Notes: generated by a model from the sequence alone, not told the origin. 64,000 bases of DNA from Waterburya sp. (GCA_965217895.1 CBDCJV010000002.1:3168001-3232000), one strand, 5' to 3'; shown: positions 4,613 through 37,657, numbered from the stretch's first letter. Made by a program: numbers and translations.

Positions 4613-4852
4613 AGGTGGCTATCCTTTTACTTAACTTTGGCTATATACAGGTTAATCGTAGGGAGTATAGATTCAATCCTTCTTAGTAGATAAATTACTC
4701 CCTGATGATTTAATTTTTTATGTTCTGTTATTCTCTATTATTTAAGTTAACTGAGATTAAAACTTCCTGAGAATATACTTTGGTAAATCTAAAGCTTTTT
4801 CCGTAATTTTGCCATCTTTAATTGGAAATTCTCTATCAAAGGATGATTGATG

Positions 4853-5461
4853 CTAAATATATTTTTGCCATATAGCTAAATCTTCAGGGCGATCCACATC
4901 TGATAAAGTTTTAAGATAATAAGTGTTTAAATTTAATTGAGTGGCGATCGCTTTTGTCTGATTTAGTACTCGATCTGTTCCCCAATTTATATTTGCAAAC
5001 AGTTCGGGTCTAGTACGGTTTAAGCCAATTAAATAATATCCGCCATCGGTTGCCGAGCCTATTACTAAATCTAGATCCGACAATGAATTAAAAGCTGCTT
5101 CTAATATTGCTCGATCAATATCAGGACAGTCAGTACCAATAGTTACGACTCTTTTGCTTCCTAAACTGAAAGCTCGCTCAAACGCCGATCGCATTTTATC
5201 ACCCAAATCTCCTCTAACCTGGGGAATATATTCGAGATCTTTTCCTAACCATTCTGCTATTAGTTGTTTATTCCCTCCTGCAAAATGTACTTCTATGGTA
5301 ATGTCACGGTAAGACTTGAGATTTCTTGCAGTGTTGAGAGTATGTTCGCTCATCTGTCGCTGTAATTCTGCTGCACCTTCTGCATCCAAAGCTGGAATCA
5401 TACGAGTTTTTGTTTTTCCCGCTTCAGGATAGCGACTAAAAATAATTAAAGTTTCCCTCAT
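4853..5461 (-). CDS. TIGR04282/DUF2064 family putative arsenosugar biosynthesis glycosyltransferase
   Basis: P..G..KTR, GDLG..M, IGTDCP, DGGYYLIGL, L.DVD.PEDL motifs. Confidence 0.85.
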   Translation of the reverse strand: MRETLIIFSRYPEAGKTKTRMIPALDAEGAAELQRQMSEHTLNTARNLKSYRDITIEVHFAGGNKQLIAEWLGKDLEYIPQVRGDLGDKMRSAFERAFSLGSKRVVTIGTDCPDIDRAILEAAFNSLSDLDLVIGSATDGGYYLIGLNRTRPELFANINWGTDRVLNQTKAIATQLNLNTYYLKTLSDVDRPEDLAIWQKYI

Positions 5462-21298: not shown

Positions 21299-21415
21299 AA
21301 TAAATTACACATTTAATTTCCCCTTTTCCCTTTTCCCTTTTCCCTAAAACAGTATATGCGGACAAGTTCTTTAGCTAAAAAACTATGGGTTTCAAAGTAG
21401 ATGCGATTTATATAG

Positions 21416-23590
21416 CTAATTATTAAAATTTCTAGTTAAAGGATAAATACGAAAGATTGAACTAATCAAAGACCAGACAGATTTAACCTCACTGATTGAT
21501 TGTTTTTGCCATCGATTTGGTTGACCAAAAATAAAGCTAACTAATTTTCTTTGTTTACTCAGATCTAATTCAACAAAATCGATTTCTGCTAATAAGTTGC
21601 TTTGTCGATCTAAATTAACTTTGTCGATTGAAACAGGAGCATTAAATAAACCAATCTCAGGAATGTTTAAAGTAGCAATTCGCTCTACAGCATTTAAAGA
21701 AGTGAGATTGTTAATATTAAAAAAAGTTGTTGCGCCATGCTCAGATAAGCTTTTGGTAGTGCCGTCAAGTATTCTATCCTCGAACGTTAGTTGACAATTT
21801 AGCTGACAGGGAAAGCGAATTGCTAAAACTTTTTGGGGTACGTCGATCGCAATCAAGATTGCAATAAATAAAATGGCGGTGTTATAAATAGCCCAAAACA
21901 AACCAATACCAACTGAATCTAAATCTTGTTGCCATTGCCAGTTAAGAAACTGAGTGCCAATAGTTACTAAATAAAGCAGAAACAAGATTATTAAAGGGCT
22001 GGCAGCCTGCCAATTTAAGACGGCTTTTTTTGAGAATACTCCTTTAGGAGTGACTTTAAAACCTTTACCAAAAGGATTAATTAAAGTATTGATCACCATA
22101 AAAGCGATGGGAAAGGCAATAATTGCTCCATATACTTCCGCCCAAAAAAACGAACGTCTGCTACCATTTAGCCAAGCGAAAACTACGGCAAAAGTAAAGT
22201 AATAAGGCATAAAAAAGAACAGCAGTTCGCTAAAGCTAGCTTGAATAGGTGCAATTCCCCACCAAAAGTACCCTAGAGGTAAACACAGAAAAACGACATA
22301 GGCAGCAGATTGAAACCAGTAGAGAATGCCCAAGCCGTGAATAAAACGCTGTAACCAGTTCAAACCTGGCAAGATAAAAGGATTAGCTCGACAAAATAAA
22401 GTTTGAATCGTTCCCTGTCCCCAACGTAAACGCTGATCGATATAGCCACCAATATTTTCCGCTGCTAGTCCTGCTGAGAGAGATTCATTTAGATAAATAA
22501 CGCGATCGCCTATTGCCTGAATCTTGAGAGAGGTTACAAAGTCTTCAGTCAAAGTTTCGGTGGGAATACCGCCGATCTTGTCTAAAACTCGACGACGCAC
22601 CACGAAAGAAGAACCACAGCAGATAACTGAATTAGCTGCATCACGACCTGAGAGAATCGCCCCAAAAAAGATATCTTCGTCGTTGGTAATAACGCTTTGC
22701 AAGCCCAAATTATGTCGGATGGGGTCGCTATTGTAGTAGGCTTTGTTGGTTTGTACCAGAGCAATATCTGACTGTTGAAAAAAGCCAATGGTGCGGGTCA
22801 GAAAGTTGCGTGTAGGAATAAAGTCGCAGTCAAATACGGCTACTAATTCGCCCTGGATTTGTCCTAAAGCGTGGTTAATATTACCTGCTTTAGCGTGACG
22901 GTTATCGGGACGAGTAATATAATAACAGCCCAATTCTTGAGCCAAATCTCTCATTTCCCGTCGGCGCAGATCATCAAGGAGATAAATTCGTTTGTGGGCA
23001 TAGTCCATTCCCTGACAGCCAATAATTGTTCGGCGCAGCATAGCAGCAGGCTCGTTATAGGTAGGGACGAGAACATCTATCCAGGGAGTATATTCCCCTT
23101 GCAATACAGCTTGGGATCTAAAATCTGCCTCGATAGCGCGATCGCGTTCAAAAACAGCCAATAACAGCGAAGAAATACCCAAAATCCAGCCTAAAATCTC
23201 TAAAATTAACAGAAAAATACTGAGGGTGCCGTTGAGCAAGTTATCTAAATTGAGGGTGGCAAACAGTCGCCATAAAAAATAGCGTCCTAACAACAATAGC
23301 AAAATGCCCATTACTATCAATCGTAACCATTTTGGCGGATTTACTGGATATAGCTGAATAATGAGAAAAGTAACTGCAACCCCGACCAAACTAGGTAAAA
23401 TCAGAGAACTGGTTTCAGGTGCAACGCTGCCAAAAGTTAGCTGACTACCCTGCCAAAAACTAGACAATTCGGCAGTTGTTCCCCACCAATTTATTTTTGT
23501 CAACAGCAGAAACAAAATTCCTCCTGTCGCCGTAACTACTATTCCCTGTTCGATCAATGTCCACCAACTAGCTTTTAGTTTATTTGCCAC
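21416..23590 (-). CDS. cellulose-synthase-like processive GT2 (BcsA/XcsA-like) with degenerate PilZ domain
   Basis: PTYNEP, LLDD, HAKAGN, FDCD, TED, QRLRW, F.VTPKG motifs; multiple TM helices. Confidence 0.9.
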   Translation of the reverse strand: MANKLKASWWTLIEQGIVVTATGGILFLLLTKINWWGTTAELSSFWQGSQLTFGSVAPETSSLILPSLVGVAVTFLIIQLYPVNPPKWLRLIVMGILLLLLGRYFLWRLFATLNLDNLLNGTLSIFLLILEILGWILGISSLLLAVFERDRAIEADFRSQAVLQGEYTPWIDVLVPTYNEPAAMLRRTIIGCQGMDYAHKRIYLLDDLRRREMRDLAQELGCYYITRPDNRHAKAGNINHALGQIQGELVAVFDCDFIPTRNFLTRTIGFFQQSDIALVQTNKAYYNSDPIRHNLGLQSVITNDEDIFFGAILSGRDAANSVICCGSSFVVRRRVLDKIGGIPTETLTEDFVTSLKIQAIGDRVIYLNESLSAGLAAENIGGYIDQRLRWGQGTIQTLFCRANPFILPGLNWLQRFIHGLGILYWFQSAAYVVFLCLPLGYFWWGIAPIQASFSELLFFFMPYYFTFAVVFAWLNGSRRSFFWAEVYGAIIAFPIAFMVINTLINPFGKGFKVTPKGVFSKKAVLNWQAASPLIILFLLYLVTIGTQFLNWQWQQDLDSVGIGLFWAIYNTAILFIAILIAIDVPQKVLAIRFPCQLNCQLTFEDRILDGTTKSLSEHGATTFFNINNLTSLNAVERIATLNIPEIGLFNAPVSIDKVNLDRQSNLLAEIDFVELDLSKQRKLVSFIFGQPNRWQKQSISEVKSVWSLISSIFRIYPLTRNFNN

Positions 23591-24929
23591 CGAACAATCC
23601 CCCTCTTATGTCACGTTTAAAAACTACTTCCGCACTACGTCCTACATCACAGAACTGTGTCGAATTAGCCTCAAGCGGTCGATCTAGCTTTACTCTTACT
23701 GCTACCTGACGGCGGACGCTATCTGGTGGCGGTACGGCAATATCTCCTCCTGTTTGAATCCGTCCCGAACCTGCCCGAACCGACTCAACTTTTCCACTGA
23801 CCAAATCACCATTTTCTGCACCCAATAAACGCACCTTGACAGGTTTACCTGGATAAATTTTTCCTGCATCCTGCTCGGAGAAAAAGGCTTCTACCCAAAG
23901 GTTTTGACAGTTTAATACCTCCAAAATGGGAACACTCGCTTCAGCGTATTCGCCCGATTTCGATTCCACCGACCAAATAGGACCACTGGTGGGACTAGGA
24001 ATCTTGGCCTGTTGATTGAGTGACAACTGGCGATCTATTTCAACTAATTCGGCCTCAGTAGTTTGCTGGCGCACCCTTGCTTCAGCAAGCTGCTGCTGCA
24101 TATCATTGATGTCAGTACTAAGTTCTCGCTGACGAATCTCTGAATATCCCAAAGTACGAGAACCTTCTAACTGTAATCCTGCTTGGGCTGCTTTTGCCTT
24201 TTGTTTGGCTTGGTTTACTTGCAATCGCGCATTTTTTACTTCGTTTTGAGCGCGATTAAAATTCAACTGAGATCTTTCTAACTTATCTTGAGAAAACACC
24301 CCCTGTTTAGCTAAATTAGTGATGCGTTCTAGCTCTTTTTTAGCAGTATTGGCAGCAAATAAAGCTCGATCTAGCTGATTTTTAGCAATATCTATTTGTT
24401 GATCTTCATAGTTCACTCCCAAGTCTTGTTGAGTGTTAGCTTCCTGCTCTAATTTAGCGATCGCTTTACGGCGATCGCCAATTTGCGCTTCAACACCAAG
24501 TACAGTTTGTTTTGCCTGTTCGATCTGGGAAATAAGACTTTGCTTGGTTACTTCAAGTTCACTGCTTTGACGTAAATTTTTTACCGTACCAATGTTTTCC
24601 CCGACAGAAATAGACTGACCTGGCTGGAGATTTTTTAGCTGTAAATTACCAGCAAGAGGATTGCGAACTTTGACAATTTCGGCATTAATAAATGCCTGAC
24701 GACTACGCACATTTGAATAGTTCTGCTGTACCATAAGTCCAACTGCTGTGGCTACACCCAATGCCATCACTAAACGTAAAGCTCGAAATGCTTTTACCCG
24801 CACAGGAACTGATGCAGGTGGTAGAGGTTTGTATTGAACCAGAGGTAGTTTCTCTAATCTGGTTAGAGATGTTTTAGATTCTGGTTCGGGCAATTCGGGT
24901 AATTTATTGGCTGATTTACGATTGGACAA
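23580..24929 (-). CDS. HlyD-family membrane fusion/periplasmic adaptor protein
   Basis: N-terminal TM, split lipoyl halves (V.NP..G / I.SP..G) around a long coiled coil; overlaps the GT2 start. Confidence 0.88.
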   Translation of the reverse strand: MSNRKSANKLPELPEPESKTSLTRLEKLPLVQYKPLPPASVPVRVKAFRALRLVMALGVATAVGLMVQQNYSNVRSRQAFINAEIVKVRNPLAGNLQLKNLQPGQSISVGENIGTVKNLRQSSELEVTKQSLISQIEQAKQTVLGVEAQIGDRRKAIAKLEQEANTQQDLGVNYEDQQIDIAKNQLDRALFAANTAKKELERITNLAKQGVFSQDKLERSQLNFNRAQNEVKNARLQVNQAKQKAKAAQAGLQLEGSRTLGYSEIRQRELSTDINDMQQQLAEARVRQQTTEAELVEIDRQLSLNQQAKIPSPTSGPIWSVESKSGEYAEASVPILEVLNCQNLWVEAFFSEQDAGKIYPGKPVKVRLLGAENGDLVSGKVESVRAGSGRIQTGGDIAVPPPDSVRRQVAVRVKLDRPLEANSTQFCDVGRSAEVVFKRDIRGGLFGGK

Positions 24930-24974: not shown

Positions 24975-25991
24975 TTAGGCGATCGCAACCCGATTGGAAG
25001 GTGTATCCTCTCCTGTAGCTGATTTAGCAAAACAATTGTGAGCATCAAAAAACTTTAGTTGTCGATAGAGCATTGATACTTGGGGCATCTGTATCCCTAC
25101 CTGCCAAGCCGTTCGTAAGGGATTACCAAAAATAGCCTCTACTTCAAGCGATCGCCCTTGATTAAAATCGATTTTCATGCTGGTTTCATAGTCTTTCATC
25201 GCTGCACTTTGTTTAATTCGTTTTTGAACGAACACTTCGGGAATATAGCGACCATAAGCCTTGGCTGCGGTAACTATTTCCGCCATTAACTGTTCGATAG
25301 AAGTGCGAACGTGAGCGTTATTAAACATTTCTTGATTGGTAGAATTCAAAACCACCGAAAGACCATTAACAGGGATATTGCAGATTAGCTTTTGCCAACG
25401 AGCCAAAAATAAGTCTTCATGTAGCTGAATCATCACATCAGCTAGAGCAAAGTCGGCTGCAATCTGACACATTCTGCTACTGACTCCCGCAGCACGATAG
25501 CCAGGAACATAATCTGCTAAGGTAATCAAACCATAGTCGAGATGACGAATATGTCCTGGTGCGATCTTATAGTTCAGAGTAAAACAAACGCCTCCCATCA
25601 CGCGATCGCTACCTATAATCTCAGCAATCTCCTCTTCCATACCCCAGCCATTTTGCAGCACCAGCACCACGCCGTTATTTTTAAGAACTTGAGGCAAGAT
25701 TTGGGGCAGTAAATGATTACTGGTAGTTTTGAGAGCAACAATAACTACATCACAAGGAGGCATCTGGCTAGCGTTGTTGTAAGCTCGAACAGAAGGTAAA
25801 GTAAAATCGCCGTCGGGAGATTCAATAATCAATCCGTGTTGGCAAACGTGGCTAAAATCGCGATTTAACAGAAAATGTACGTCAAAGCCCGCTCTTTGTA
25901 AACAAGCACCGTAGAAAGCACCGATCGCTCCAGTGCCAATAATGGCGTAGCTACGACGGTCATCGGTCGTTGAGCATTTATCATTTATCAT
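24975..25991 (-). CDS. 2-dehydropantoate 2-reductase (ApbA/PanE)-family oxidoreductase
   Basis: IIGTGAIG..YG, LQNG.G.EE, W.KL..N...N, TSM..D...GR.LE.EAI. Confidence 0.9.
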   Translation of the reverse strand: MINDKCSTTDDRRSYAIIGTGAIGAFYGACLQRAGFDVHFLLNRDFSHVCQHGLIIESPDGDFTLPSVRAYNNASQMPPCDVVIVALKTTSNHLLPQILPQVLKNNGVVLVLQNGWGMEEEIAEIIGSDRVMGGVCFTLNYKIAPGHIRHLDYGLITLADYVPGYRAAGVSSRMCQIAADFALADVMIQLHEDLFLARWQKLICNIPVNGLSVVLNSTNQEMFNNAHVRTSIEQLMAEIVTAAKAYGRYIPEVFVQKRIKQSAAMKDYETSMKIDFNQGRSLEVEAIFGNPLRTAWQVGIQMPQVSMLYRQLKFFDAHNCFAKSATGEDTPSNRVAIA

Positions 25992-26785
25992 TTGCCAGTA
26001 TTCCTACTTCCTACAGAAACGCCTAAGCAAAATTCTTTAATCTCTCGCGCTACTTTGGCTGGTTGTTCTACCTGTAAATAGTGACCCGCATCGGCAATGT
26101 TCACCAAATGGGCATTAGGCATTTGTTTGGCTAACAATTTTCCTTTGCGGGGAGAAATAATTACATCATCACCGCCAGTTAAAATCAAGGCGGGAATTCG
26201 TACAGAAGAGATCGCCTCACTTAAATCGATTTGACTAATACCCATAAAGTCATTCGCAGCTTTGCTCAAACGAGTATGTTTAAACTCATTTAAAACCAAA
26301 TTTTTGACCTCTTCTGGTACTTCAGGGGCAAAACTTTGCCCTAGGGTTGCCAAATCCCATTCTCCACTGATAGCCGATGCCCAAAAGTCGGGATGAAGCT
26401 GAATCTTGGCTGCTGTGGTCATCAAAATTAGTCGTGTGACTCGTTGAGGATAAGACAAGGCAAACTGTAGCCCGATCAAACCGCCCAATGATTGACCAAC
26501 GTAGCAAATTGGCTGTTCGATATTTAGTGCCGTCAAGAAAGCTGCTAAAAAATCGGCAACCTCTGTTAAAGAATTAGGAACTGTTCCAGATGTGTTCCCG
26601 TGTCCTGGCAAGTCTACCGCTATCGAACAAATACTACTATCCAATTGAGACATCATTGGCAACCAATGACGGCTACTGCCCCCCGCCCCGTGTACCAGCA
26701 ACATCAAGGATTCTGTATCAGGACTAGGTAATCCTTGAGGGGCTATATAATTGACGTTGTAATCTGCAACTTTTATTGATGGCAT
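25988..26785 (-). CDS. alpha/beta hydrolase
   Basis: HGAGG, DLPGHG, GQSLG nucleophile elbow, G..D, AGH. Confidence 0.9.
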   Translation of the reverse strand: MPSIKVADYNVNYIAPQGLPSPDTESLMLLVHGAGGSSRHWLPMMSQLDSSICSIAVDLPGHGNTSGTVPNSLTEVADFLAAFLTALNIEQPICYVGQSLGGLIGLQFALSYPQRVTRLILMTTAAKIQLHPDFWASAISGEWDLATLGQSFAPEVPEEVKNLVLNEFKHTRLSKAANDFMGISQIDLSEAISSVRIPALILTGGDDVIISPRKGKLLAKQMPNAHLVNIADAGHYLQVEQPAKVAREIKEFCLGVSVGSRNTGK

Positions 26786-26872
26786 AATTTTAAAAGGATG
26801 AGGAATAAGGAAAGAAGTGCAGCTATGGCAAGAAGGCTAAAAAACTAACCGCTACTCTTTACTTGCTACTTC

Positions 26873-28252
26873 CTACTCCCTACTCTCCCGTACGCGCGAA
26901 CGGCCGTTCGCCCGTACTTCTGACTTCTCTTCAGATTCCATCACAATACTAGACAGCATCGTGTTCATCTTATTGACTGATTCAATATATTCTTTTTCGG
27001 GAACAGATTCGCCGACGATTCCCGCCCCAGCATTAAGATACACGCTGTCACCATATTGATATGCCGAACGAATGGCGATCGCAATATCTGCCGTACCGTC
27101 GCTATCTACCCAGCCAATGCCACCTGCATAGAGTCCTCTGGGTCGATCTTCAAGGCGATCAATCCACTCCAAAGCCAGTTTTTTATTAATTCCTGAAACG
27201 GTAATCCCAGGAAATAGCACCTTCAAAGCATCCCACAGAGATTTGTCAGTTTTAAGCTGTCCGCCAACCCGCGAGGAAAGATGTTGAACGGTACGATATT
27301 TTTTAACTTCCATAAAGTCAAATACCTGTACGGTTTCTGGTTGACATACTTGCGTCACCTCTTTTTGAGCTAGCCAAACAGATAAAGCGTGTTCTTTAAC
27401 TTCTTTAGCATCGGTAAACAGTTCATCATGGAGCAAAGCATCTTTGGCGGGATCGGCTTCGCGATGTCTAGTTCCCGCTAAAGGATTAGTAATTACAAAT
27501 CCGCTAGCATTGACCTCCATCAAAATCTCAGGACTAAAACCAACCGAACGCACATCTCCTAACTTAAAACAGTAAGAACGAGCCGAGTTGTTGACCGCAG
27601 CACCCATGTTATAAGTACCCAGTACGTCTAAGTTGCCTTTGACTTCTACTGAACGAGAGATAATTGCCTTGTGTAATTCGCCCCGTTGAATTGCCGAAAC
27701 TAGATCGCCGACTCTTGACTCATATTCTTGGTTGTCCCCTGGTTCTGCCTTTGGCGGGGTTACTTGATATTCTGGCTGTTGAACTTCAACAGATATTGCC
27801 TCTAATAGTTTCGAGGGAGAATTGATGCTACGAATATGTACTCCTTTATCTGTAATTCGTAGCTCAATTTCTGGCACAAAAAAATAAAGCATCGGCTGGG
27901 AGATCGCCTTTGAGTATGCCGAATAGAACCGAGCAATATCAAAACCGACATAGCCATAAGCCGTCCAATTTTCTACGGGTAGATGACTCAACACCGACTC
28001 TACCTGCTTGAGCGGATCGCTGACAGCTTCAGAATAAGTTTCACCTAAATAGTTACTGTAAATTGTGTCCGTTCCCACCGCCACATCAGCCAAGGGATTA
28101 GCAACAATACGCACCTCGTTTTCCTGCTCATACAGCATATAGTCAGTGAATATATCGGCTGCGATCGCATTCCTCAGCAGCATCTGAGGGTCAGTTTTAC
28201 CTGGAACAAAGACTTCGTGATAGGTCTGTAAATTATCGGCTAGTAAATACAT
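26873..28252 (-). CDS. salicylate synthase (Irp9/MbtI-like chorismate-utilising enzyme)
   Basis: GFSPE, TNPLAGTR, D.KEV.EH..SV, VQHL.S.V.G, LFP.IT.SGI.K, RGLY.G, AGAGI. Confidence 0.88.
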   Translation of the reverse strand: MYLLADNLQTYHEVFVPGKTDPQMLLRNAIAADIFTDYMLYEQENEVRIVANPLADVAVGTDTIYSNYLGETYSEAVSDPLKQVESVLSHLPVENWTAYGYVGFDIARFYSAYSKAISQPMLYFFVPEIELRITDKGVHIRSINSPSKLLEAISVEVQQPEYQVTPPKAEPGDNQEYESRVGDLVSAIQRGELHKAIISRSVEVKGNLDVLGTYNMGAAVNNSARSYCFKLGDVRSVGFSPEILMEVNASGFVITNPLAGTRHREADPAKDALLHDELFTDAKEVKEHALSVWLAQKEVTQVCQPETVQVFDFMEVKKYRTVQHLSSRVGGQLKTDKSLWDALKVLFPGITVSGINKKLALEWIDRLEDRPRGLYAGGIGWVDSDGTADIAIAIRSAYQYGDSVYLNAGAGIVGESVPEKEYIESVNKMNTMLSSIVMESEEKSEVRANGRSRVRESRE

Positions 28253-28290
28253 GATTAGTTGTTAGTTGTTGATTAAGGAAAAAAATAGTA

Positions 28291-28785
28291 TTAAACGGCA
28301 ACTGTTTGTGGTTTTGATTCTTCGGCAGTCCAAGCTTCAACTGCTTCTTTAATTGCCTGCATCTGAACTTTTGTATTGCGATTGAGAAATGACTCCATTT
28401 TTTCTACTGCCCATGCGCCTTCTGCTGGTGCAAATTTCTGCTCCCAGGTCATGACTGTACCGACGTTTTGCGGTAGCTCCTCATAAGTCCAGTAGATTTT
28501 CATCATCTCAAATGGAAAAGCCTGCTTGACTCGTTGCGCTTCGGCTTTTTTGCCAGGCTTATCGATGATGCGAGTCGAAACCCAAGTGCGAGAAGGATGA
28601 TCCTCTTCGGGAAAAGTAGTCAGTTGAAACGTTACTTTGTTGCCGTCTCTTTCTAAAACTTTGGCTTCTTCATACTCAGTAAATAGCTGAGGCCATAGTT
28701 CGATATTATTAGTCAAATCAAAAACGGTATCAAAGTCTTTGAGGATGACAATGGTATTGTGAGTGTATCCAGGTAATTCTGACAT
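28291..28785 (-). CDS. SRPBCC polyketide aromatase/cyclase (TcmN/WhiE-VI-like)
   Basis: WPQLFTEY....VL, W.S.R, PF..M.I.W.Y, M.W.Q.F, NT..QM motifs. Confidence 0.9.
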   Translation of the reverse strand: MSELPGYTHNTIVILKDFDTVFDLTNNIELWPQLFTEYEEAKVLERDGNKVTFQLTTFPEEDHPSRTWVSTRIIDKPGKKAEAQRVKQAFPFEMMKIYWTYEELPQNVGTVMTWEQKFAPAEGAWAVEKMESFLNRNTKVQMQAIKEAVEAWTAEESKPQTVAV

Positions 28786-28850
28786 TTATTTGTTGCTCCT
28801 ATTTAAATTTATTAATTGAAAAAAAACAGAGGTGTTGTAGAGCTACTTCC

Positions 28851-28878
28851 GTACGGGCGATTCGCGAATCGCCCGTAC
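28851..28878. repeat. 28-bp perfect palindrome, REP-like
   Basis: gtacgggcgattcgcgaatcgcccgtac; variants at 26890-26917 and 30427-30454. Confidence 0.85.
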
Positions 28879-28913
28879 TGTACTTATTACTTTTCTCTTT
28901 ATCCCTCATTGCT

Positions 28914-29699
28914 TTAGGGAACTATTCCTACCGCCCGAACCCAGCTAGCGTCTAGGTCTTTGATCTTTAAAGGAAAACAGGATACCTGAAAGCCCGTAGA
29001 GGGCAAACTATCTAAATTTGCTAGGCGTTCGATCTGGATGTATTCTCGTTCTCGTCCGTAAAAGTGTGCCGGCCAAAGGTTAGCGCGATCGCCTGTTTCC
29101 CAGAAGTCTTCGAGCATGGTTACAAAGGGGCGATCGAATCCATAGGTATCGATGCCGATCACTTTAATTCCCTGTTTTACCAGCCATTCGGTAGCCTCAC
29201 GGCTCATCCCAGGAGCGTCGCTAAAGTATTCCCGTTTGCCCCACAGCTTATCTGTTCCCGTCCAAAGTAAAACTATGTCTAAAGGTTTTAGTTCGTGTTG
29301 GGCTTGCTGGAGAGCGTTTTGAATATCCTCAACGGTGATAAATTCTCCCGCTTTTTTATGAGTTAAATCTAAACGAACTCCAGGACGATAAAACCAATCT
29401 AGAGGGAGAAGGTCTACGCTGCGAGCGGGTTGACCTTCACTCTCCACACCATAGTGAATTGGTGCATCAATATGAGTACCCATGTGGGTGGGTAAGGTTA
29501 CCGTATCGAGGGTAATAAAAGCGCGATCGGGAAAATCTTCTACCCCTAGGCGACGAGGATCGGATTTAGCTTGGTTACGAGCTTCTACCTTGCCGCAAAA
29601 CTCCTTTGCCCCTCGATAATGATCCAGTCGGTCTACCTTTATTTCTAAAGGTTCAGAAACCGAATTTTCGACTAAGACACTAAGATCGACTAGCTGCAC
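28914..29699 (-). CDS. metal-dependent cyclase family protein (kynurenine-formamidase-like polyketide cyclase)
   Basis: H.GTH.DAP.HYG, IG.D..GFD.PF, LWPAH..GR..EY.QIERLANL, FP.K....A.W.RA; probable GTG start at 29699 (VQLVDLS). Confidence 0.88.
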   Translation of the reverse strand: MQLVDLSVLVENSVSEPLEIKVDRLDHYRGAKEFCGKVEARNQAKSDPRRLGVEDFPDRAFITLDTVTLPTHMGTHIDAPIHYGVESEGQPARSVDLLPLDWFYRPGVRLDLTHKKAGEFITVEDIQNALQQAQHELKPLDIVLLWTGTDKLWGKREYFSDAPGMSREATEWLVKQGIKVIGIDTYGFDRPFVTMLEDFWETGDRANLWPAHFYGREREYIQIERLANLDSLPSTGFQVSCFPLKIKDLDASWVRAVGIVP

Positions 29700-30015
29700 T
29701 TTCAGTTTGCTCCTGTTTCTGCATATATGCCTCAATGTGGATCATTGCTTCATCGAGAGCCAAGTTAGTATCGGTAATGCCGACAATTGGTAGGGCTAGT
29801 AAGATAGCTGCAATGATTTCTTCTTTAGTCGCCCCTTCTTCCATCGCTCGTTCGACGTGGGTATTAATACCTCGTAGACCACGATGAGCAGCAAAAATGC
29901 CTAAGATGATTAATTCATTGGTTTTCATCCCCAAGGGAGAATATTCTCTGGCAGATTTAGCTAGATCGAAAAAGCTTTGAGCCACTTCGGGGGCTTCTTT
30001 CATCATGTTTTTCAT
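29680..30015 (-). CDS. carboxymuconolactone decarboxylase/AhpD-like protein (no CxxC)
   Basis: L..K..ELI, H..RA...GAT.EEI pattern. Confidence 0.8.
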   Translation of the reverse strand: MKNMMKEAPEVAQSFFDLAKSAREYSPLGMKTNELIILGIFAAHRGLRGINTHVERAMEEGATKEEIIAAILLALPIVGITDTNLALDEAMIHIEAYMQKQEQTESAASRS

Positions 30016-30417
30016 TTAATTTTCTCCTTGTTCTAAAATAATGTGTCCTTCTTTGGGTGATGGTGCTAAAGGGCCAGAGGCAAAAACCACCACAATTTCT
30101 TCCTCGCCAACGTTGTAAATAGAGTGAGCCTTTCCTTGGGGAGTCAGCACTGCCTGACCCGCCTGGAAATTCACGTCTCCCACACCTTCGACTACAATTT
30201 TTCCTTGACCTTGCAAGACATAAAAGCATTCTTCACTGTGGGGATGGGCATGGTTTAAAACTTTCCCGCCAACGGGGACGGTTGCTGTTCCCATGATCAT
30301 TTTGGTTGAGCCAACGCTGGTAGGAGAAATCAGAACATGAATCTGACCGCCTCGGTCTTCGATAGTAGCAACGTCTTCTGGACCCATTGCTAGCTTTTGG
30401 TTTTGAACTGTAGTCAT
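30016..30417 (-). CDS. cupin-fold polyketide cyclase (TcmJ/WhiE-II-like)
   Basis: RGG....L.SP.SVG, H.HP.SEE..YV..G, H...N.G, PLAP.P..GH motifs. Confidence 0.88.
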   Translation of the reverse strand: MTTVQNQKLAMGPEDVATIEDRGGQIHVLISPTSVGSTKMIMGTATVPVGGKVLNHAHPHSEECFYVLQGQGKIVVEGVGDVNFQAGQAVLTPQGKAHSIYNVGEEEIVVVFASGPLAPSPKEGHIILEQGEN

Positions 30418-30469
30418 AATTGATTGTTAGAGGCAAACGACCGTTCGCCCGTACATAAATAATTGGTAA

Positions 30470-32026
30470 TTAATTTTTCTGCACAAGCTGACGAGCTTTG
30501 AGCAAGGCTTGACGATGAATCTTTCCCGTTGAGGTGCGGGGTAGCTGGTCTAAAAAGTGAATTGCTTTTGGAGCTTTAAAGCTGGGTAAATTAGCACGAA
30601 CTAATTTACGCAAACTGTCTTTTAATCGCCCTGACTCTTCAAAACCAGATTTGAGACTGATATATGCCACTGCCTGAGTTAGATTCTGTCCGCCACCAGA
30701 TTCGGGAACAACAGCTGCATCTAAAACCGCTTCGTGTTGAAGTAAAATATCTTCAATTTCAAAGGGAGATACCCACTTACCACTGACTTTAAACAAATCA
30801 TCTTTGCGTCCCATGAAAAAGAAATAACCATCTTCATCGCAGATATATTTGTCTCCAGTCCGCATCGTATTACCATAGATAACCTCTCGCGTTTGCTGGT
30901 GGCGATTCCAGTATTGCAGCATCAGACTTGCTCCCCCGACCTGGAGATTGCCAATTTCGCCTTTAGATAGGTCAAAACCGCGATCGTCTACAATCCGCAC
31001 ATCATAACCAGGAACTGGCTTACCGCAGCTACCAGGACGACATTCTCCTACACGATTAGATAAAAAAATATGCAGAAATTCACTCGTGCCAATGCCTTCG
31101 CAGATCTCAAGATCAAAGCGATCGCGCCATTTATGCCAGATACTTTTAGGTAGCTGTTCGGCTGCTGAAAGACACAGCCTCAAGGAACTAGTATCTAAAG
31201 GCGCAATTTCTTGTACTGCCCAAATCCCTGAATAAATTGCAGGAATGGCAAATAAAACCGTCGGTCGATAGCGATTAATATCGGCAATGATATCAAAAAC
31301 ATTATTGGCATCAGTCAATACCGCAGCAGCCCCAACCGCCATCGGCATATATAAAGTGTTGCCCAAACCATAGGCAAAGGGCATTTTGGCTACTGAATAG
31401 ACAATATCGTCTTGATTCAAACCAATAGTTGCCCGTGCATACTCTTCGGCGCACATTGCCATGCTGCGATGCAGGTGAACCACACCTTTTGGTTTACCCG
31501 TACTGCCAGAAGTATAAAGCCAGAATGCTGGTTCGTCTGGGGAAGTACGGGCTGGATTGGGGACATGATTTATTTGACTAGATCTTTGGGTAAAAGAAGT
31601 TTCGCCATCGGTAATAATGGTTTGACGTAAAAACTCAGAGTTATTTAGAGATAGTTTACTTTGCCAGTCTTGATTAGTAATTAAAATCTTTGCCCGACAG
31701 TCTTGCACAATATATTGAATATCTTCAATCGTACAGGCGGTATTAATCGGCACTGGTACTGCCCCCATCCAGATTGCCCCCCAAAAAGCAAAGACAAATT
31801 CAGGACTATCGCTTAGCAAGATAGCAACACGATTTTCTCGTTCTAAGCCCAGTTCGGACAGTAGTGCTGCTGCTTGGCAAACTTCCTCATTAACTTTGCG
31901 ACAGCTATAGGCTAGATCTTGATAGTAGAAAGCAATTCGTTCGCCATCTTCTTGGACAAGACTAGACTTAAGAAAGTAAGCTGCAACATTAAAGATTTCA
32001 GGCAGTTGTTTATAGGGTAGATTCAT
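30470..32026 (-). CDS. benzoate-CoA ligase family aryl-acid adenylating enzyme (probable salicylate ligase)
   Basis: FWLYTSGSTG.PKG, K..FAYGLGN, GIGT.E.LHIFLSN, TGD, LP.T.TGKI. Confidence 0.9.
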   Translation of the reverse strand: MNLPYKQLPEIFNVAAYFLKSSLVQEDGERIAFYYQDLAYSCRKVNEEVCQAAALLSELGLERENRVAILLSDSPEFVFAFWGAIWMGAVPVPINTACTIEDIQYIVQDCRAKILITNQDWQSKLSLNNSEFLRQTIITDGETSFTQRSSQINHVPNPARTSPDEPAFWLYTSGSTGKPKGVVHLHRSMAMCAEEYARATIGLNQDDIVYSVAKMPFAYGLGNTLYMPMAVGAAAVLTDANNVFDIIADINRYRPTVLFAIPAIYSGIWAVQEIAPLDTSSLRLCLSAAEQLPKSIWHKWRDRFDLEICEGIGTSEFLHIFLSNRVGECRPGSCGKPVPGYDVRIVDDRGFDLSKGEIGNLQVGGASLMLQYWNRHQQTREVIYGNTMRTGDKYICDEDGYFFFMGRKDDLFKVSGKWVSPFEIEDILLQHEAVLDAAVVPESGGGQNLTQAVAYISLKSGFEESGRLKDSLRKLVRANLPSFKAPKAIHFLDQLPRTSTGKIHRQALLKARQLVQKN

Positions 32027-32047
32027 CGCTTATTCTTTTATAGATGT

Positions 32048-32416
32048 TCAGCTAGCCAGGACGTGAACTAATACATAATCATTACAGCTTGACCAGCTAG
32101 CAATCCAATTGGTGTAACCTAGTCTGGCTGCCTGCAATTTGGCTTTACCATAAAGCTTGATGCTTAACTGAAAGTCCGAGACGATCGCTTCTATTTCGTG
32201 CCAGTCAATACCTGCTAATCCAGTTCCTAAAGCTTTGCCGACTGCTTCTTTGGTAGCAAAGCAAACAGCGAAGCTTTGATAGGGTTGTTTAGCTGACTGA
32301 CAGCGATCGATTTCGTCTAAGGTAAATAGTAAATTTAAGGTTTCTCGATCATAGCGATCGATTAACTGTTTAATTCTTTCAACAGAAGCAATGTCAACGC
32401 CAATTCCCATACCCAT
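32048..32416 (-). CDS. acpS: holo-ACP synthase (AcpS-type PPTase); start uncertain (ATG 32416 or GTG 32479)
   Basis: GIGVDI....RI, FT..E, FA.KEA..KALGTG motifs. Confidence 0.88.
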   Translation of the reverse strand: MGMGIGVDIASVERIKQLIDRYDRETLNLLFTLDEIDRCQSAKQPYQSFAVCFATKEAVGKALGTGLAGIDWHEIEAIVSDFQLSIKLYGKAKLQAARLGYTNWIASWSSCNDYVLVHVLAS

Positions 32417-32492
32417 ATTTTTGGTGGAAGTTGTAGAAGTTTGACAACGAGTCGATAACTTAACTACTCGGCTGCTCACAAATTTGGGGGAA

Positions 32493-32798
32493 CTATTTCG
32501 GTTGAACAGGGTGCGCGGTTTGAGGCATGGCTGGCATTGTATTTTCAACATAATTACTGTCTGGAGAGTTAGACTGGTCAACGGCTTGAACGATTTTTTC
32601 ACTGATCTGTGCCAGAGTCATATCCTGACGGGACTCTAGCTTGATGTTGATTCCCAAACGTCGTTTGAGTCCTAAAGAAATATCAACGGTTTCGGTAGAA
32701 TCTAGCTGTAGGTCTTGACGAATCGAAGCTGTATCAGTAAGTTCTGCTTCTTCAAAACCTAAATCGATCAGAACATCTTTGAGTGCTGAATTTATCAT
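32493..32798 (-). CDS. acyl carrier protein
   Basis: acidic small protein with DL.LDS(TE) phosphopantetheine site, directly after the CLF. Confidence 0.88.
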   Translation of the reverse strand: MINSALKDVLIDLGFEEAELTDTASIRQDLQLDSTETVDISLGLKRRLGINIKLESRQDMTLAQISEKIVQAVDQSNSPDSNYVENTMPAMPQTAHPVQPK

Positions 32799-32844
32799 TG
32801 ATTGACTTTACAAATGGTATTAATATTGTTTTGGTTAGGATTGG

Positions 32845-34056
32845 TTACTTACTAATAACGAAAGAAGCGTTAACCCCTTCGCGAGCGCGAGAATTGACTA
32901 GAGTTCGGGCAACTGAACTCGATTGAGCTTGGGTAACAAAATTTAGCTGGCAATCGGCTTCGGCATTGACTGACTGCATAACGGGTAGTTTGCCAGTTTC
33001 CATCGCCATCAGGCTACAGGCGACTTCGGTAGTACAGCTAGCACCGTAAAGATGACCAAACAGCGATTTGGGTACGGTAACGGGAACATCTGGAGCGTCG
33101 GCAAAGACTCCTTGAATAGCCTCTGCCTCTAGGCGATCGCCTGTTTTGGTACCGCAACCCTCGGCAAACACGACATCAATATCTCGAGCAGCTAAATTGG
33201 CATCTTTTAAGGCTTTATTCATTGCCCGTTTAAATTGAATTCCTTCTGTAGGATTAGTATCAGTAGTCATACTACCCGAAGTTACTTCGCCATAAATTTT
33301 TGCTCCTCGTGCTAGGGCGTGTTCTTCTGACTCTAAAACTAAAACCGTACTGCCTTCCCCTAGAACAATGCCCGATCGCCCTTTGTCAAAAGGCTGATAG
33401 GCTGTACGAGGATCTGCTGCACCGCTAATTTCCCCTGTTTCGTAGTAGCAAACCATGCCAAAGCGGGTAATGGGAGCTTCCGAGCCTCCTGTAAGCACAA
33501 CATCGTTATGCCCCTGCTGGATCGACTTAACGCCAAAGTAAAGACCACTAGCACCGCTAGCGCGATCGCAAACAAAGCTTTTGCTGTAGCCTCGAATACC
33601 ATAGCGAATGGTGACGTAACCCTGGGCAGCAGTCGGAAACCAAGCTGTAGCCTGCCAGGGATTCACCATGGCTGCGCCATCGTTATATAGCTCTTTAAAA
33701 CCACGTTCGCAGATATCCCAACCCCCAGCGTTGTTGCCAAACCAAACCCCAACCCGATAGGAATCTTCTGTTTCTAGATCTAGATTGGCATCTGCCAAAG
33801 CTAGATCGCTAGCTGCTAGGGCATAATGGGTAAAGCGATCGGTTTTGACCACCAAACGACGAGGAATAAAATCATCGGGCTTAAAATCCTGAATTGTTCC
33901 CGCCACTTTGGTTGGGAAGTTAGTCGGATCGAAGCGATCTATTTCACCAATTGCCGACTTACCCTCGGTCATATTTTGCCAGAATTGTTCTTTGCCAATG
34001 CCCGATGGATTAACAATTCCAATTCCCGTAACAACTACCCGTTTTTTATCCGTCAT
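32845..34056 (-). CDS. type II PKS chain-length factor (KS-beta)
   Basis: KS fold, TDRFTHYAL, AWF, VPVTVPK motifs; catalytic Cys and first His absent (VCDRASG, FAEG). Confidence 0.9.
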   Translation of the reverse strand: MTDKKRVVVTGIGIVNPSGIGKEQFWQNMTEGKSAIGEIDRFDPTNFPTKVAGTIQDFKPDDFIPRRLVVKTDRFTHYALAASDLALADANLDLETEDSYRVGVWFGNNAGGWDICERGFKELYNDGAAMVNPWQATAWFPTAAQGYVTIRYGIRGYSKSFVCDRASGASGLYFGVKSIQQGHNDVVLTGGSEAPITRFGMVCYYETGEISGAADPRTAYQPFDKGRSGIVLGEGSTVLVLESEEHALARGAKIYGEVTSGSMTTDTNPTEGIQFKRAMNKALKDANLAARDIDVVFAEGCGTKTGDRLEAEAIQGVFADAPDVPVTVPKSLFGHLYGASCTTEVACSLMAMETGKLPVMQSVNAEADCQLNFVTQAQSSSVARTLVNSRAREGVNASFVISK

Positions 34057-34092
34057 CTTTGCACTAAATAATGTTGATTTTATTTTTCTGTC

Positions 34093-34154
34093 GGGTGGGC
34101 AAAATTCCTTTCATCTTGATCCAAAAACCTGAATTTTTGGCTTGCCCACCCTAC
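34093..34154. repeat. REP-like palindromic element between KS-alpha and KS-beta
   Basis: gggtgggcaa...ttgcccaccctac. Confidence 0.75.
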
Positions 34155-34166
34155 GATTGAAATGCA

Positions 34167-35444
34167 CTACGCTGCTAATTCTTCTGGCTTCACCTTTCGC
34201 AAAATTGCAGCCGAATGAATACCGCCAAAACCAGAGGCTGTTAACATAGCGGTGTTAACCTCCTGTTCTCTAGCAACGTTGGGAACATAATCCAAATCGC
34301 ACACAGGATCGGCAAATTCATAGTTAGCAGTAGGATGAATTGTTGAAAGCTCGATCGCTCCCAAGGTGGCAACTACGCCAACTAAACTGGCTGAAGAAAG
34401 AGAGTGTCCAATCATCGATTTAGTAGAACTAATCGGCACTCGGTACGCTTTGTCTCCCAACACTGTCTTATAGGCATTGGTTTCAAAAACGTCATTTTGC
34501 GGAGTAGAACTACCATGAGCGTTGATGTAGTCGAGTTCTTCTGGGGCAACTTTACCCGACTCCAAAACCTTCCTCACCACAGCAGCCATCGGAATACCGT
34601 GATCGGGTAAGTCAGTCATGTGGAAAGCATTGCTGACGCTAGAGTAGCTAACTACCTCTGCATATATATGCGCTCCCCTGGCTTGGGCATGTTCCAACTC
34701 TTCTAATATTAAAACCGCAGCAGCTTCGCCAATTACAAAGCCAGCTCGCTTGACATCAAAAGGACGAGAAGCTTTTTCGGGTTCGCAGTCGGCTACGGAC
34801 AGAGAGCCGATTACGTCTAAAGTAGCGTAGGTCAAGCTTGTTAAAGGTGCTTCGGTTGCTCCTGCCATCATGATGTTCATTTCGCCAGATTGAATTAGCT
34901 CAAAACTCAATCCCAGAGCATCTAAACCCGCAGTACAGCCAGTAGAAAGAGAGGTACAGTGACCCTGTAAATTATACTTGCGTGCCAGCAAAGCAGCAGA
35001 GTAATTAAACATACCTGCATTATAGAAATTTTCTCCCGTTTCCACGTAGCTAATTTCTTCCGTGCCTCTATTAGTACACTGCTCGTAAATCTTCTGAATA
35101 TAGGGAGTTCCACCAATTGCCGAAGAAAATATCGTTCCCAACATTTCTGAGTCTTCTTGGTTGAGATCGATACCTGAATCTTCCCAAGCCATTGTTCCCG
35201 CACATACGCCAAACTGAACCACTCGATCCTGTTCTAAAAGGTGTTCAAATTCAGTCCCCGAACAATGGTTCGACAGGTCGAAATCTAAAACTCGGCACAA
35301 AACATTACTTTTGATGCCCATCGCCTCCATTTCAGAATCGGCGGTCAGAAAGGACTCTCCCCTAATGGCGTTTTTCCAAAACTGTTCTTTGCCAATTCCT
35401 AGTGGAGCGATCGTTCCAATGCCTGTAATTACAACTCGTTTCAT
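34167..35444 (-). CDS. type II PKS ketosynthase alpha
   Basis: STGCTAGLDA (Cys), YINAHGSST.QND (His), KSMIGHSL (His), ASGFGG, NAFHMT motifs characteristic of aromatic PKS KS-alpha. Confidence 0.93.
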   Translation of the reverse strand: MKRVVITGIGTIAPLGIGKEQFWKNAIRGESFLTADSEMEAMGIKSNVLCRVLDFDLSNHCSGTEFEHLLEQDRVVQFGVCAGTMAWEDSGIDLNQEDSEMLGTIFSSAIGGTPYIQKIYEQCTNRGTEEISYVETGENFYNAGMFNYSAALLARKYNLQGHCTSLSTGCTAGLDALGLSFELIQSGEMNIMMAGATEAPLTSLTYATLDVIGSLSVADCEPEKASRPFDVKRAGFVIGEAAAVLILEELEHAQARGAHIYAEVVSYSSVSNAFHMTDLPDHGIPMAAVVRKVLESGKVAPEELDYINAHGSSTPQNDVFETNAYKTVLGDKAYRVPISSTKSMIGHSLSSASLVGVVATLGAIELSTIHPTANYEFADPVCDLDYVPNVAREQEVNTAMLTASGFGGIHSAAILRKVKPEELAA

Positions 35445-36051
35445 ATTTTTTGGCGATAAAAATAACTAGATTGAAGTTAAAAAGCAAATTTACTTAGGAT
35501 TGATTAAGCCATCTCAAGCAGCGAATTACAATGACGGAGACAGATTAGTTCAGCAGATAAAATTGAACAATTAGCCACCAACAAGGTTTGCACAAGACAT
35601 AAAGCATTCATTAGATAAATCTAGAAGTCTATTAGTTGAATGGTTGTAATAATTGGATACTTAAATCTAAATCTTGAATCTTCATTTCTTCTTGTAAGCT
35701 ACCGTTTGCTTTTGCCTACTAATTAAATTAGTCCGTTCTCCTGAGACCTGGGTAGAAATAAAGTACGAACTTTGTTGAATCTGTGTTTAATTTTTGTCTG
35801 TGTTGTTCTACTCTGTCTAAAAAACCTTTCGTCACTCAAAAAATATTTAAACTAAGATTATCTTTTTTGAATCAAATAAAACAAAAAACAAGCTTAAAAT
35901 AAGCATAAAAAAGCTATATTTTACTAGTTTTATCAACGATCGCTATGTTTTATGGTGCTAAATTAAAAATTAAAGATTAAGGCAAAAATTCAAGCTGAAA
36001 GTAATAGCTTTGATAATTGGTTTTCGACAGCTTATCCGATAGCTATTATCT

Positions 36052-36558
36052 TTGTTCAGTAATCTGCAACACTCGTTTACTATTATGAGAATATTATTTA
36101 AATCCAAAATAGAAATTAGAAAACATCATAAACGCTCGGCAGATATCGCTCAATCACCTAGACAAACTGCCACACTTCAAAGAAATAGAATAGTCAGACC
36201 AAAAGTTTCAGAAGCCAGTTTAGCCCTCAAAAAATTCTCTAAGCATTTGGCATCGACGGTAGTTACTTATCCAGTTCCAGGAAAAAACGCCGTCGAGCAA
36301 ATATCTTATGCAGAACCTCTTCAAGATAGTGACAAAGGTTTAGTTTGGATCAATTCAGCACAGTATTTTGAAAATGTACCGCCTAGTGTTTGGAACTTTT
36401 GCGTAGGTAATTATTGTATATGTCAAAAATGGCTCAAGCTGAGAGAAGGAACTACCTTAAATCGTCAAAATGTTCAAGACTATCAACGCTTAGTCATGTT
36501 GATTAGCGAAACGATTGACTTAATGAATAATGTTGATTCTCAGCTAATGCACGAGTAG
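36052..36558 (+). CDS. protein resembling the isolated C-terminal domain of type ISP restriction-modification enzymes (start uncertain, ATG at 36085 possible)
   Basis: WIN..QYFE.VP..VWNF.VG.Y..CQKWLK.R.G..L......YQ.....I.ETI.LM..D pattern. Confidence 0.65.
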   Translation: MFSNLQHSFTIMRILFKSKIEIRKHHKRSADIAQSPRQTATLQRNRIVRPKVSEASLALKKFSKHLASTVVTYPVPGKNAVEQISYAEPLQDSDKGLVWINSAQYFENVPPSVWNFCVGNYCICQKWLKLREGTTLNRQNVQDYQRLVMLISETIDLMNNVDSQLMHE

Positions 36559-36562
36559 ATAA

Positions 36563-36670
36563 TATCGCAGTACGCTAATTGGTTAGGACAACTCTAGTTA
36601 ATCGTTCGCAAGTAGCCAAGGGATACCCCCCGCAGGGAGTATCCTAAAAAATAGTACGTATTGCTGCGTA
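36563..36670. mobile_element. MITE-like element, same family as 14241-14352
   Basis: gcagtacg..ttaggaca / atcctaa..cgtattgc imperfect inverted ends. Confidence 0.5.
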
Positions 36671-36742
36671 AATCATATTAGCTATCAATTTTCTATTGCT
36701 TTTTTGTATTGAGTTAACACATTACATCCAAAAAATTTAACT

Positions 36743-37657
36743 ATGATTAAGACAGCGTGGGTGTTTCCAGGACAAGGCTCGCAAGAATCGGGTATGGGAA
36801 CGGATTTAGCTGGTATACCCTTGGCTAAAGCCAAATTTAAACAGGCTCAAGATATTTTAGATTGGGACGTAACTAAAATATGTCTCAATGAAAATTTAGA
36901 ACTATCTCAAACACTTTATACACAACCATGTCTTTACGTTGTCTCAGCTATTTTGACCGATCTAATGAAAGATGCAGAATTTGAACCTTCTATAGTTGCA
37001 GGTCATAGTTTAGGTGAATATGCTGCTCTTTATGCAGCAGAAGTTATTAGTTTTGAGGCTGGTTTACAATTAGTTAAGCTTAGAGCCGAATTAATGACTA
37101 ATACTCCTCCAGGGGTGATGACTGCTCTAATTGGATTCGATCGCGATCGCCTTGAAGAACAGATTGCCATAACTCCAGATGTAGTTATAGCCAATGATAA
37201 TCACAATAGTCAGATTGTAATTTCTGGTACGTCGGCAGGAGTTGAAGCATTATTAAAAAAAATCAAATATAGGCGCATTGTACCCCTTGACGTTAGCGGA
37301 GCTTTTCATTCACCGTTAATGGCAGATATATCCTTGGAGTTTAATCGAACTTTGCAAACTGTAGCTTTTCGACCAGCTAAAGTGCCTGTAATATCTAATG
37401 TCGAACCATCTCCATCTACCGAAGCATCAGTTTTAAAAAACCGTTTGATGCAGCAAATGACTGGTCGAGTACGCTGGCGAGAAATTGTCAATAGTCTAGC
37501 TCAAAATGATGTCAAAAAAATAATTGAAATAGGACCTGGTGATATTTTGACTAATACGATTTTTAAAATCCTCCCCAACATAGAATTAGAAAATGTCAGT
37601 AGCAATACAAAAATACCAACATCAAATCAGCAGGTTAAATTGCTAGAATCCATTTGA
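36743..37657 (+). CDS. fabD: malonyl-CoA:ACP transacylase
   Basis: FPGQGSQ, TQP, GHSLGE, VSGAFHS, EIGPG. Confidence 0.95.
   Translation: MIKTAWVFPGQGSQESGMGTDLAGIPLAKAKFKQAQDILDWDVTKICLNENLELSQTLYTQPCLYVVSAILTDLMKDAEFEPSIVAGHSLGEYAALYAAEVISFEAGLQLVKLRAELMTNTPPGVMTALIGFDRDRLEEQIAITPDVVIANDNHNSQIVISGTSAGVEALLKKIKYRRIVPLDVSGAFHSPLMADISLEFNRTLQTVAFRPAKVPVISNVEPSPSTEASVLKNRLMQQMTGRVRWREIVNSLAQNDVKKIIEIGPGDILTNTIFKILPNIELENVSSNTKIPTSNQQVKLLESI

Follow-up and report, generated by a model that had tools for sequence, protein, structure and literature searches.

Gene content of the operon

A 64,000-nt window on contig C2 of the genome of Waterburya sp. (genome G000), within which all coordinates below are counted unless a contig is given, contains a minus-strand operon (24975-35444) that encodes, in order, a ketosynthase (KS), a chain-length factor (CLF), an acyl carrier protein (ACP), an AcpS-type phosphopantetheinyl transferase, a ligase, a cupin, a carboxymuconolactone-decarboxylase (CMD)-family protein, a PF04199 cyclase, an SRPBCC protein, a chorismate-binding enzyme, an alpha/beta hydrolase and the ketopantoate reductase ApbA (Table 1). 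Upstream of the KS gene, on the plus strand, are a small gene with a Type ISP C-terminal domain and then a FabD gene. Judged on its sequence, the operon core is an aromatic type II polyketide synthase (PKS) of known type. A first-pass annotation of positions 24975..37657 had described a self-contained, salicylate-primed system of this kind, and the genes that it named (the KS with its Cys-His-His residues, CLF, ACP, AcpS, FabD, salicylate synthase and ligase) were all found where it had placed them. The three cyclase folds that it listed were likewise recovered, as a TcmN-like SRPBCC protein, a PF04199 cyclase and a cupin with a weak match to TcmJ. The same interval also holds four genes that had gone unmentioned, encoding the CMD-family protein, the alpha/beta hydrolase, the ketopantoate reductase and the small Type ISP C-terminal domain protein.

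The operon combines the features of an aromatic type II PKS, namely a KS-alpha with Cys-His-His residues, an adjacent CLF without the Cys, a stand-alone ACP and an aromatase/cyclase. In the CLF, Arg165 is found at the position of the catalytic Cys of FabF and Glu299 at that of the first His. The ACP is unmatched by Pfam, yet it is 35% identical to the ACP of Laceyella, and its residues Q31, S34 and T35 have the numbering published for gloACP. The chorismate-binding enzyme scores 351 bits against TIGR03494 (cut-off 325) and remains below every anthranilate, isochorismate and aminodeoxychorismate (ADC) synthase cut-off shown in the NCBIfam comparison; its closest structures are MbtI (best PDB match, E 3e-67) and Irp9. 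Passing the TIGR03494 cut-off places it, as had been proposed, among the salicylate synthases rather than in the anthranilate/isochorismate family. The ligase exceeds the TIGR02262 cut-off of 375 with 504 bits.

Table 1. Genes of the polyketide operon and its surroundings in the Waterburya sp. window
Feature	Coordinates	Strand	Remarks
KS-alpha	34167..35444	-	C170/H310/H347; 64% identity to Laceyella KS
Chain-length factor (CLF)	32845..34056	-	75% identity to Gloeocapsa PCC 7428 CLF, 62% to TheF
Acyl carrier protein	32493..32798	-	S34 with Q31 and T35 on either side
AcpS-type phosphopantetheinyl transferase	32048..32416	-	Probable start 32416
Benzoate-CoA-ligase-family enzyme, predicted salicylate ligase	30470..32026	-	TIGR02262; 52% to Laceyella ligase
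Cupin, possible TcmJ-type cyclase	30016..30417	-	50% to Laceyella; TcmJ-like match weak (E 3e-4)
Carboxymuconolactone-decarboxylase (CMD)-family protein	29680..30015	-	55% to Laceyella
Metal-dependent cyclase, PF04199	28914..29699	-	Likely start 29699; 64% to Laceyella
TcmN-type monodomain aromatase/cyclase (SRPBCC)	28291..28785	-	E 3e-30 to 1e-26; 57% to Laceyella
Salicylate synthase (MbtI/Irp9 type)	26873..28252	-	TIGR03494; 56% to Laceyella
Alpha/beta hydrolase, predicted chain-release enzyme	25988..26785	-	G-x-S-x-G motif; 52% to Laceyella hydrolase
Ketopantoate reductase ApbA/PanE, putative CoA supply	24975..25991	-	Family match; co-occurrence with KS
Small Type ISP C-terminal domain protein	36052..36558	+	Kept within cluster in three families
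Cluster-specific malonyl-CoA:ACP transacylase (second FabD)	36743..37657	+	Co-occurrence with KS
HlyD, cellulose-synthase-like GT2 and glycosidase-like cassette	19940..24929	-	Between ApbA and TPR; absent in some relatives
Tetratricopeptide repeat (TPR) protein	18992..19891	-	Conserved alongside cluster in three families
Major facilitator superfamily (MFS) transporter	17702..18940	-	Homology to relatives' contiguous supercluster stops at its 3' end

Phylogeny and related clusters

We generated a quick maximum likelihood tree of 42 rows, with Shimodaira-Hasegawa-like approximate likelihood-ratio (SH-aLRT) rather than bootstrap support, which drew on 14 of the 80 loci collected with the KS as query; the KS row of one locus (L020), with a stop within the matched stretch, was left out. 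The KS groups with the KS-alpha of Streptomyces (SH-aLRT 99) and the CLF with other CLFs (100), and both fall outside FabF, FabB and the two E. coli aryl-polyene KSs in the tree, in agreement with the aromatic type II assignment of the first-pass annotation. The cyanobacterial sequences are sister to Laceyella together with a Priestia plasmid cluster in both the KS and the CLF trees, the cyanobacterial CLFs being sister to the TheF/Priestia CLFs with an SH-aLRT of 100.

The gene order of the window is retained, as far as the loci reach, in 16 of the 80 loci, namely 15 cyanobacterial loci and one of Laceyella sacchari DSM 43356 (two of the 16 end at contig ends and L010 matches in pieces only). 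Because the protein clusters of the Laceyella locus include records named TheB (UYO72930.1) and TheF (UYO72934.1), we identified this locus as the thermorubin cluster. From KS to hydrolase, it has eleven core genes in the same order as in the window, and these are 35-64% identical to their counterparts there. With a salicylate synthase and a benzoate-type ligase in the operon, this 11-gene order and a shared KS/CLF clade, the window cluster belongs with a salicylate-primed clade formed by the thermorubin and glo systems, and the orthology to the thermorubin cluster and to that of Gloeocapsa sp. PCC 7428 bears out the salicylate priming first suggested from the gene content.

Outside the core the two kinds of cluster differ. 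The Laceyella locus carries genes for the ARD-type cupin TheB, for a ferritin-like protein and for two methyltransferases, one of the LCM type and one of class I; these four had no match in 44 cyanobacterial loci, and TheB, the LCM methyltransferase and the ferritin-like gene had none in genome G000. The cyanobacterial clusters, unlike that of Laceyella, have Methyltransf_2 enzymes, a P450, a Rieske oxygenase, FabD, TPR and NACHT proteins and DevBCA-TolC or other ABC exporters. With the tailoring genes unmatched, the window cluster is not a thermorubin cluster proper, and for the same reason its product is probably not thermorubin. The pyrone of thermorubin arises by oxidative opening of the fourth ring, for which the ARD-type, LCM, ferritin-like and class I methyltransferase genes of Laceyella would be the obvious candidates.

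The glo PKS of Gloeocapsa sp. PCC 7428 shares with the window the Q31/S34/T35 residues of the ACP, a cognate phosphopantetheinyl transferase and a salicylate ligase, and its CLF shows 2 differences from the window CLF over the 69-residue stretch compared. An in vitro study of this PKS had been mentioned at first pass and does exist: salicylate, loaded by the PKS's own ligase, and 11 malonyl units are reported to give C29H20O10 and C29H22O11 (PMC11744666). In the available passages of that paper (Li et al. 2025, PMC11744666) the minimal PKS is covered, and no natural product, tailoring, export or pigment role is described. The window lineage differs from the PCC 7428 system in being without an MTHFR-like gene and in having its supercluster in three pieces. 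With the TcmN/WhiE-type pathways of Streptomyces, among which WhiE makes an envelope-bound spore pigment, the window has in common a monodomain aromatase, a cupin and the lack of a ketoreductase; these pathways differ from it by their acetate starter, their actinobacterial KS/CLF clade and their lack of salicylate genes.

More distant loci were also collected. The 64 loci L017-L080, mostly of Omnitrophota and Planctomycetales, carry other type II PKSs (KS identity 44-52%), many of them with a cyclase and an SRPBCC protein, and none of the 64 has a salicylate synthase match. Type II KS homologues (45-48%) are found on plasmids of Apilactobacillus kunkeei, Staphylococcus saccharolyticus and Lactobacillus gasseri. 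The Priestia megaterium plasmid NZ_CP026738.1 (L130, 28388-40441) encodes a thermorubin-like cluster with cupin, methyltransferase and ferritin-like genes and without a salicylate synthase; in front of it is the gene of an RNA methyltransferase of the TrmH family, which could confer self-resistance.

Distant tailoring and export blocks

The description of the cluster as self-contained did not hold. Methyltransferases, oxygenases, a NACHT protein and an exporter lie at two distant loci, and the TPR and MFS genes of the cluster fall to the left of 24975..37657. In three relatives (G422, G418 and G419) the PKS runs unbroken, via the TPR and MFS genes, into two further blocks. One is for export (MFS, DevBCA, TolC-like); the other, for tailoring, comprises a DUF7453/RTX protein, an O-methyltransferase, a Rieske oxygenase, an HTH-NACHT protein, two further O-methyltransferases and a P450. 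In G000 the same DNA, 77-95% identical, is found at C2:3.186-3.208 Mb (the window), 2.526-2.538 Mb and 1.098-1.106 Mb, with the tailoring block about 0.65 Mb and the export block about 2.1 Mb from the PKS. As regards a possible assembly error, contigs of runs X1 and X2 span two junctions, both runs coming from one sample that is possibly the source of the assembly; the check was confined to these two junctions.

Linked arrangements recur in carriers from more than one family. In G450-G453 methyltransferases lie 4-21 kb from the KS, accompanied in three of the four by the P450 and the Rieske oxygenase, and in G472 a single stretch of about 35 kb holds the PKS, NACHT, TPR, DUF7453 and DevBCA genes, an ISP-like gene, three methyltransferases and the P450. 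All the genes tested in the three blocks of G000 (26/26) are intact, with dN/dS values of 0.02-0.36 against two relatives, indicating purifying selection. From the comparison of these genomes, the distant tailoring and export blocks quite likely belong to the pathway, and a cluster-finding tool run on G000 would miss them. The P450 of the tailoring block (G000:C2:2525840-2527183; L111:7840-9183) has Asn-Pro in place of the conserved Thr of the I-helix in 12/12 copies (AGHENP or AGQDNP), and may not be an ordinary hydroxylase.

Two observations were made on these blocks in other genomes. The export block of G414 includes a flavin-dependent halogenase (L107:12531-13781), which suggests halogenated variants, and in the KS-negative genome G408 (C29:20235-21263) one of the cluster methyltransferases survives as an 82% copy interrupted by a stop codon, perhaps left over from a loss of the cluster.

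Distribution and residence in cyanobacteria

The KS has a patchy distribution in the genus, where it is present in 13 of 39 genomes. The cluster-type FabD occurs in 13/13 KS-bearing and 0/26 other genomes and ApbA in 12/13 and 1/26 (that one at 48%), while the block P450 is found in 10 and the Rieske oxygenase in 8 of the 39, all within the 13; as these genomes are kin and non-independent, such co-occurrence counts are descriptive and overstated. For FabD, which is 53% identical to the other FabD of the genome at C2:3757644, this pattern and the clusters of the relatives rule out a chance neighbour, and its inclusion in the cluster at first pass was correct. On a wider scale, the cluster was found in 3 of 401 genomes of a draw over the phylum (G000 included), and the CLF in 14 of 401 genomes of the order of the window, within 2 of 38 families (7 of 28 genomes in the second family), and in 5 of 90 genomes of the order of Phormidesmis priestleyi ULC007, discussed below. 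The named loci fall in three clades labelled Pleurocapsaceae, Chroococcidiopsidaceae and Leptolyngbyaceae.

The operon contains 9 HIP1 sites per 10,470 nt against 0.09 expected; its density of 0.86/kb is near that of the chromosome (1.11/kb), as compared with 0.05/kb for the Laceyella locus. These values agree with the long residence in cyanobacteria that had been suggested from the same sites. The G+C content of the operon is somewhat higher (44% vs 39%).

Proposed pathway

In the pathway that we propose, the salicylate synthase would convert chorismate to salicylate, as expected from its family. AcpS would activate the ACP, onto which the ligase would load salicylate and the second FabD malonyl units, salicyl loading having been obtained in vitro with the PCC 7428 orthologues. 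The KS-CLF pair would then very probably add 11 malonyl units, as the PCC 7428 orthologue does in vitro, and by analogy with that system the salicyl-C29 chemistry as a whole is highly probable. By comparison with thermorubin, a linear tetracene would be folded by the TcmN-type aromatase and the cyclase, perhaps with help from the cupin, and released by the hydrolase; no ketoreductase is encoded in the operon. The three O-methyltransferases, the P450 and the Rieske oxygenase at C2:2.526-2.538 Mb would tailor the product, their membership of the pathway being likely as stated above, and the MFS genes with DevBCA-TolC at C2:1.098-1.106 Mb would export it. Because the ARD-type dioxygenase and the ferritin-like enzyme of Laceyella are unmatched here, the fourth ring is expected to stay carbocyclic, and it would oxidise to a hydroxy-quinone, that is, a pH-sensitive chromophore of the anthraquinone type. 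A flavone-like ring could also form from the salicyl-1,3-diketone arm. Taken from end to end, a salicylate-primed type II PKS would make a C29 four-ring polyphenol, the distant enzymes would methylate and oxidise it, and after export to the sheath it would most likely serve as a gloeocapsin-type sunscreen pigment, a reading that we hold with confidence barely above even.

A possible link to gloeocapsin

Gloeocapsin is a halochromic sunscreen pigment of the sheath. In the available passages of the literature it is described as extracellular and probably an anthraquinone derivative; it is reported from Gloeocapsa, Solentia paulocellulare and P. nigrescens ULC007, and its occurrence is given as confirmed for three lineages, the Chroococcidiopsidales, Chroococcales and Leptolyngbyales (PMC10359912), Solentia being placed with the pleurocapsalean group (PMC10092097). 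It is called enigmatic, with Raman bands common to anthraquinones and a clustering that separates gloeocapsins from other compounds, and is used as a candidate biosignature by which ancient cyanobacteria might be traced (PMC13213007). The available passages that mention gloeocapsin together with polyketides name no gene cluster for it.

One of our loci, L012, belongs to Phormidesmis priestleyi ULC007 (genome G451, accession MPPI01; PMC5313606), in which the core and tailoring genes are intact. Seven KS matches were found in this genome, three of them modular, two FabF-like and the other two being this KS-CLF pair; no type III PKS match was found in it (the control matched in 5/14), and the pair is the sole aromatic PKS found in ULC007. 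Among the species-level genomes searched, the cluster occurs in three cyanobacterial families, which echoes the three lineages reported for gloeocapsin. The cluster often has exporter and exopolysaccharide genes as neighbours: in G472 and G101 genes for Wzx, Wzy and WecG adjoin it directly, and in the window the cellulose-synthase-like cassette lies inside it. We consider the cluster a candidate for the biosynthetic source of gloeocapsin, with even confidence for and against. In its full form, equally balanced in our estimation, the proposal is that the supercluster makes gloeocapsin, the second sheath sunscreen of cyanobacteria, as a salicyl-primed C29 tetracene quinone on a thermorubin core. 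The O-methyltransferases, the Thr-less P450 and the Rieske oxygenase would complete the molecule before its secretion into the polysaccharide of the sheath.

Several points weigh against this proposal. The ULC007 link concerns one strain and was spotted post hoc, and the product of the cluster is a prediction from its genes. The correspondence of lineages holds at family level only, order names differing between sources so that the match is loose, and no genome named as Gloeocapsa alpina, G. compacta or Solentia was identified. Two CLF homologues at 70-73% bear the labels Allocoleopsis and Rhizonema and so fall outside the three families. The exopolysaccharide genes may neighbour other loci just as often. 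Gloeocapsin has been known since 1877 with its structure only tentatively assigned (PMC12264120, available passages), coumarin or flavonoid skeletons having also been proposed (PMC10359912, likewise), and no report of its production by PCC 7428 was found in the available literature. The tailoring set varies, as the Rieske oxygenase was not found in 5 of the 13 KS-bearing genus genomes, nor in G449 and G453, and the P450 was not found in 3 of the 13, nor in G453; the methyltransferase query matched 12/13 KS-bearing and also 2/26 KS-negative genus genomes, and the kinship of these genomes noted above inflates all such counts. Finally, the PDB matches of the ligase include benzoate-CoA ligases at 351 bits and an anthranilate-CoA ligase at 338 bits, and because these scores are so near each other the assignment of its substrate rests on orthology.

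Alternative readings

The cluster might instead have nothing to do with gloeocapsin and make a new relative of thermorubin, which the cell would export as a ribosome-targeting antibiotic or an allelochemical. Such a role would fit a core orthologous to the thermorubin cluster, exporters that could give self-protection, and a patchy spread (13/39 in the genus) of the kind that suits a defence compound; moreover, thermorubin is described in the available passages as binding the ribosome via its tetracycle and its ortho-hydroxyphenyl group (PMC9841432), both of which are predicted here. It would, however, leave unexplained the coincidence of ULC007, in whose order 5 of 90 genomes have the CLF, and the exopolysaccharide neighbours, and it would deprive ULC007 of an aromatic PKS for its anthraquinone-like pigment; one compound could also serve as pigment and antibiotic both. 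We keep this as a tentative alternative, on the unlikely side.

The scattered blocks might no longer cooperate in G000, where the core would then yield an untailored polyphenol only or the cluster would be silent. The supercluster is indeed broken into three loci, the MTHFR-like gene is gone and the NACHT gene is parted from the core, but the 26/26 intact genes with dN/dS well below 1 (an average that includes the time before the split) argue otherwise, and we regard such decay as improbable.

Still less probable is thermorubin itself as the product, in which case the three methyltransferases, the P450 and the Rieske oxygenase would stand in for the non-homologous tailoring enzymes of Laceyella. 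Thermorubin has three O-methyl groups, matching in number the three O-methyltransferases found here, and the core is the same, as is the C29 chain of the PCC 7428 orthologue. Against this, neither G000 nor the 44 cyanobacterial loci gave a match to TheB, to the carboxyl methyltransferase or to the ferritin-like gene, the oxygenases are absent from some carriers, and the literature listings gave no report of thermorubin from cyanobacteria.

A lipid-making role for the KS and CLF, as enzymes of the FabF-like or aryl-polyene kind, has a negligible probability: the best NCBIfam and some of the best PDB matches are indeed FabF, but the scores of 389 and 336 bits are under the FabF cut-off of 494, the tree sets both proteins apart, a TcmN-type aromatase is present and the products of the orthologue are aromatic.

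Accompanying genes

The HlyD, GT2 and glycosidase-like cassette is present here and in five relatives and absent from G101, G414 and G410. A P450 gene of the window (15502-16878) was rejected as a cluster member, as it has no close positional match in 14 stretches from relatives (best 28%), and an AspH-family gene at 37712, which is found behind FabD in the closest relatives only, was not counted either. A promoter scan of 35400-36800 gave 4 sites against 5.0 expected.

The protein encoded at 36052-36558 belongs to a family of 160-200 aa, in which a basic, variable N-terminus precedes the Type ISP C-terminal domain, and which is found in three families of cyanobacteria; across carriers its gene sits upstream of FabD or of a methyltransferase. 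No full-length type ISP enzyme matching it was found in G000, and an atlas search with the protein yielded nothing usable; it is possibly a co-opted DNA-binding regulator. In most relatives the gene immediately upstream of the KS is an MTHFR-like one (e.g. L004:9040-9951), which is gone from the window (35445-36051) and from the closest relatives; in those that have it, it may supply methyl groups to the methyltransferases. At the other end of the window (1574-5461) are radical SAM/DUF3641, phosphate-transporter-family, methyltransferase and DUF2064 genes, unrelated to the PKS, which we take to resemble an arsenosugar-type set.

Significance

The core type is already known, and the possible link to gloeocapsin is new. 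With a named gene cluster in a reported producer that is cultured and axenic, the origin of gloeocapsin becomes directly testable; the cluster also predicts a carbon skeleton and offers genes with which to date the trait. Even without this link, a full cyanobacterial pathway is defined around a PKS that has already been expressed in E. coli, and a new relative of a ribosome-targeting antibiotic is predicted.

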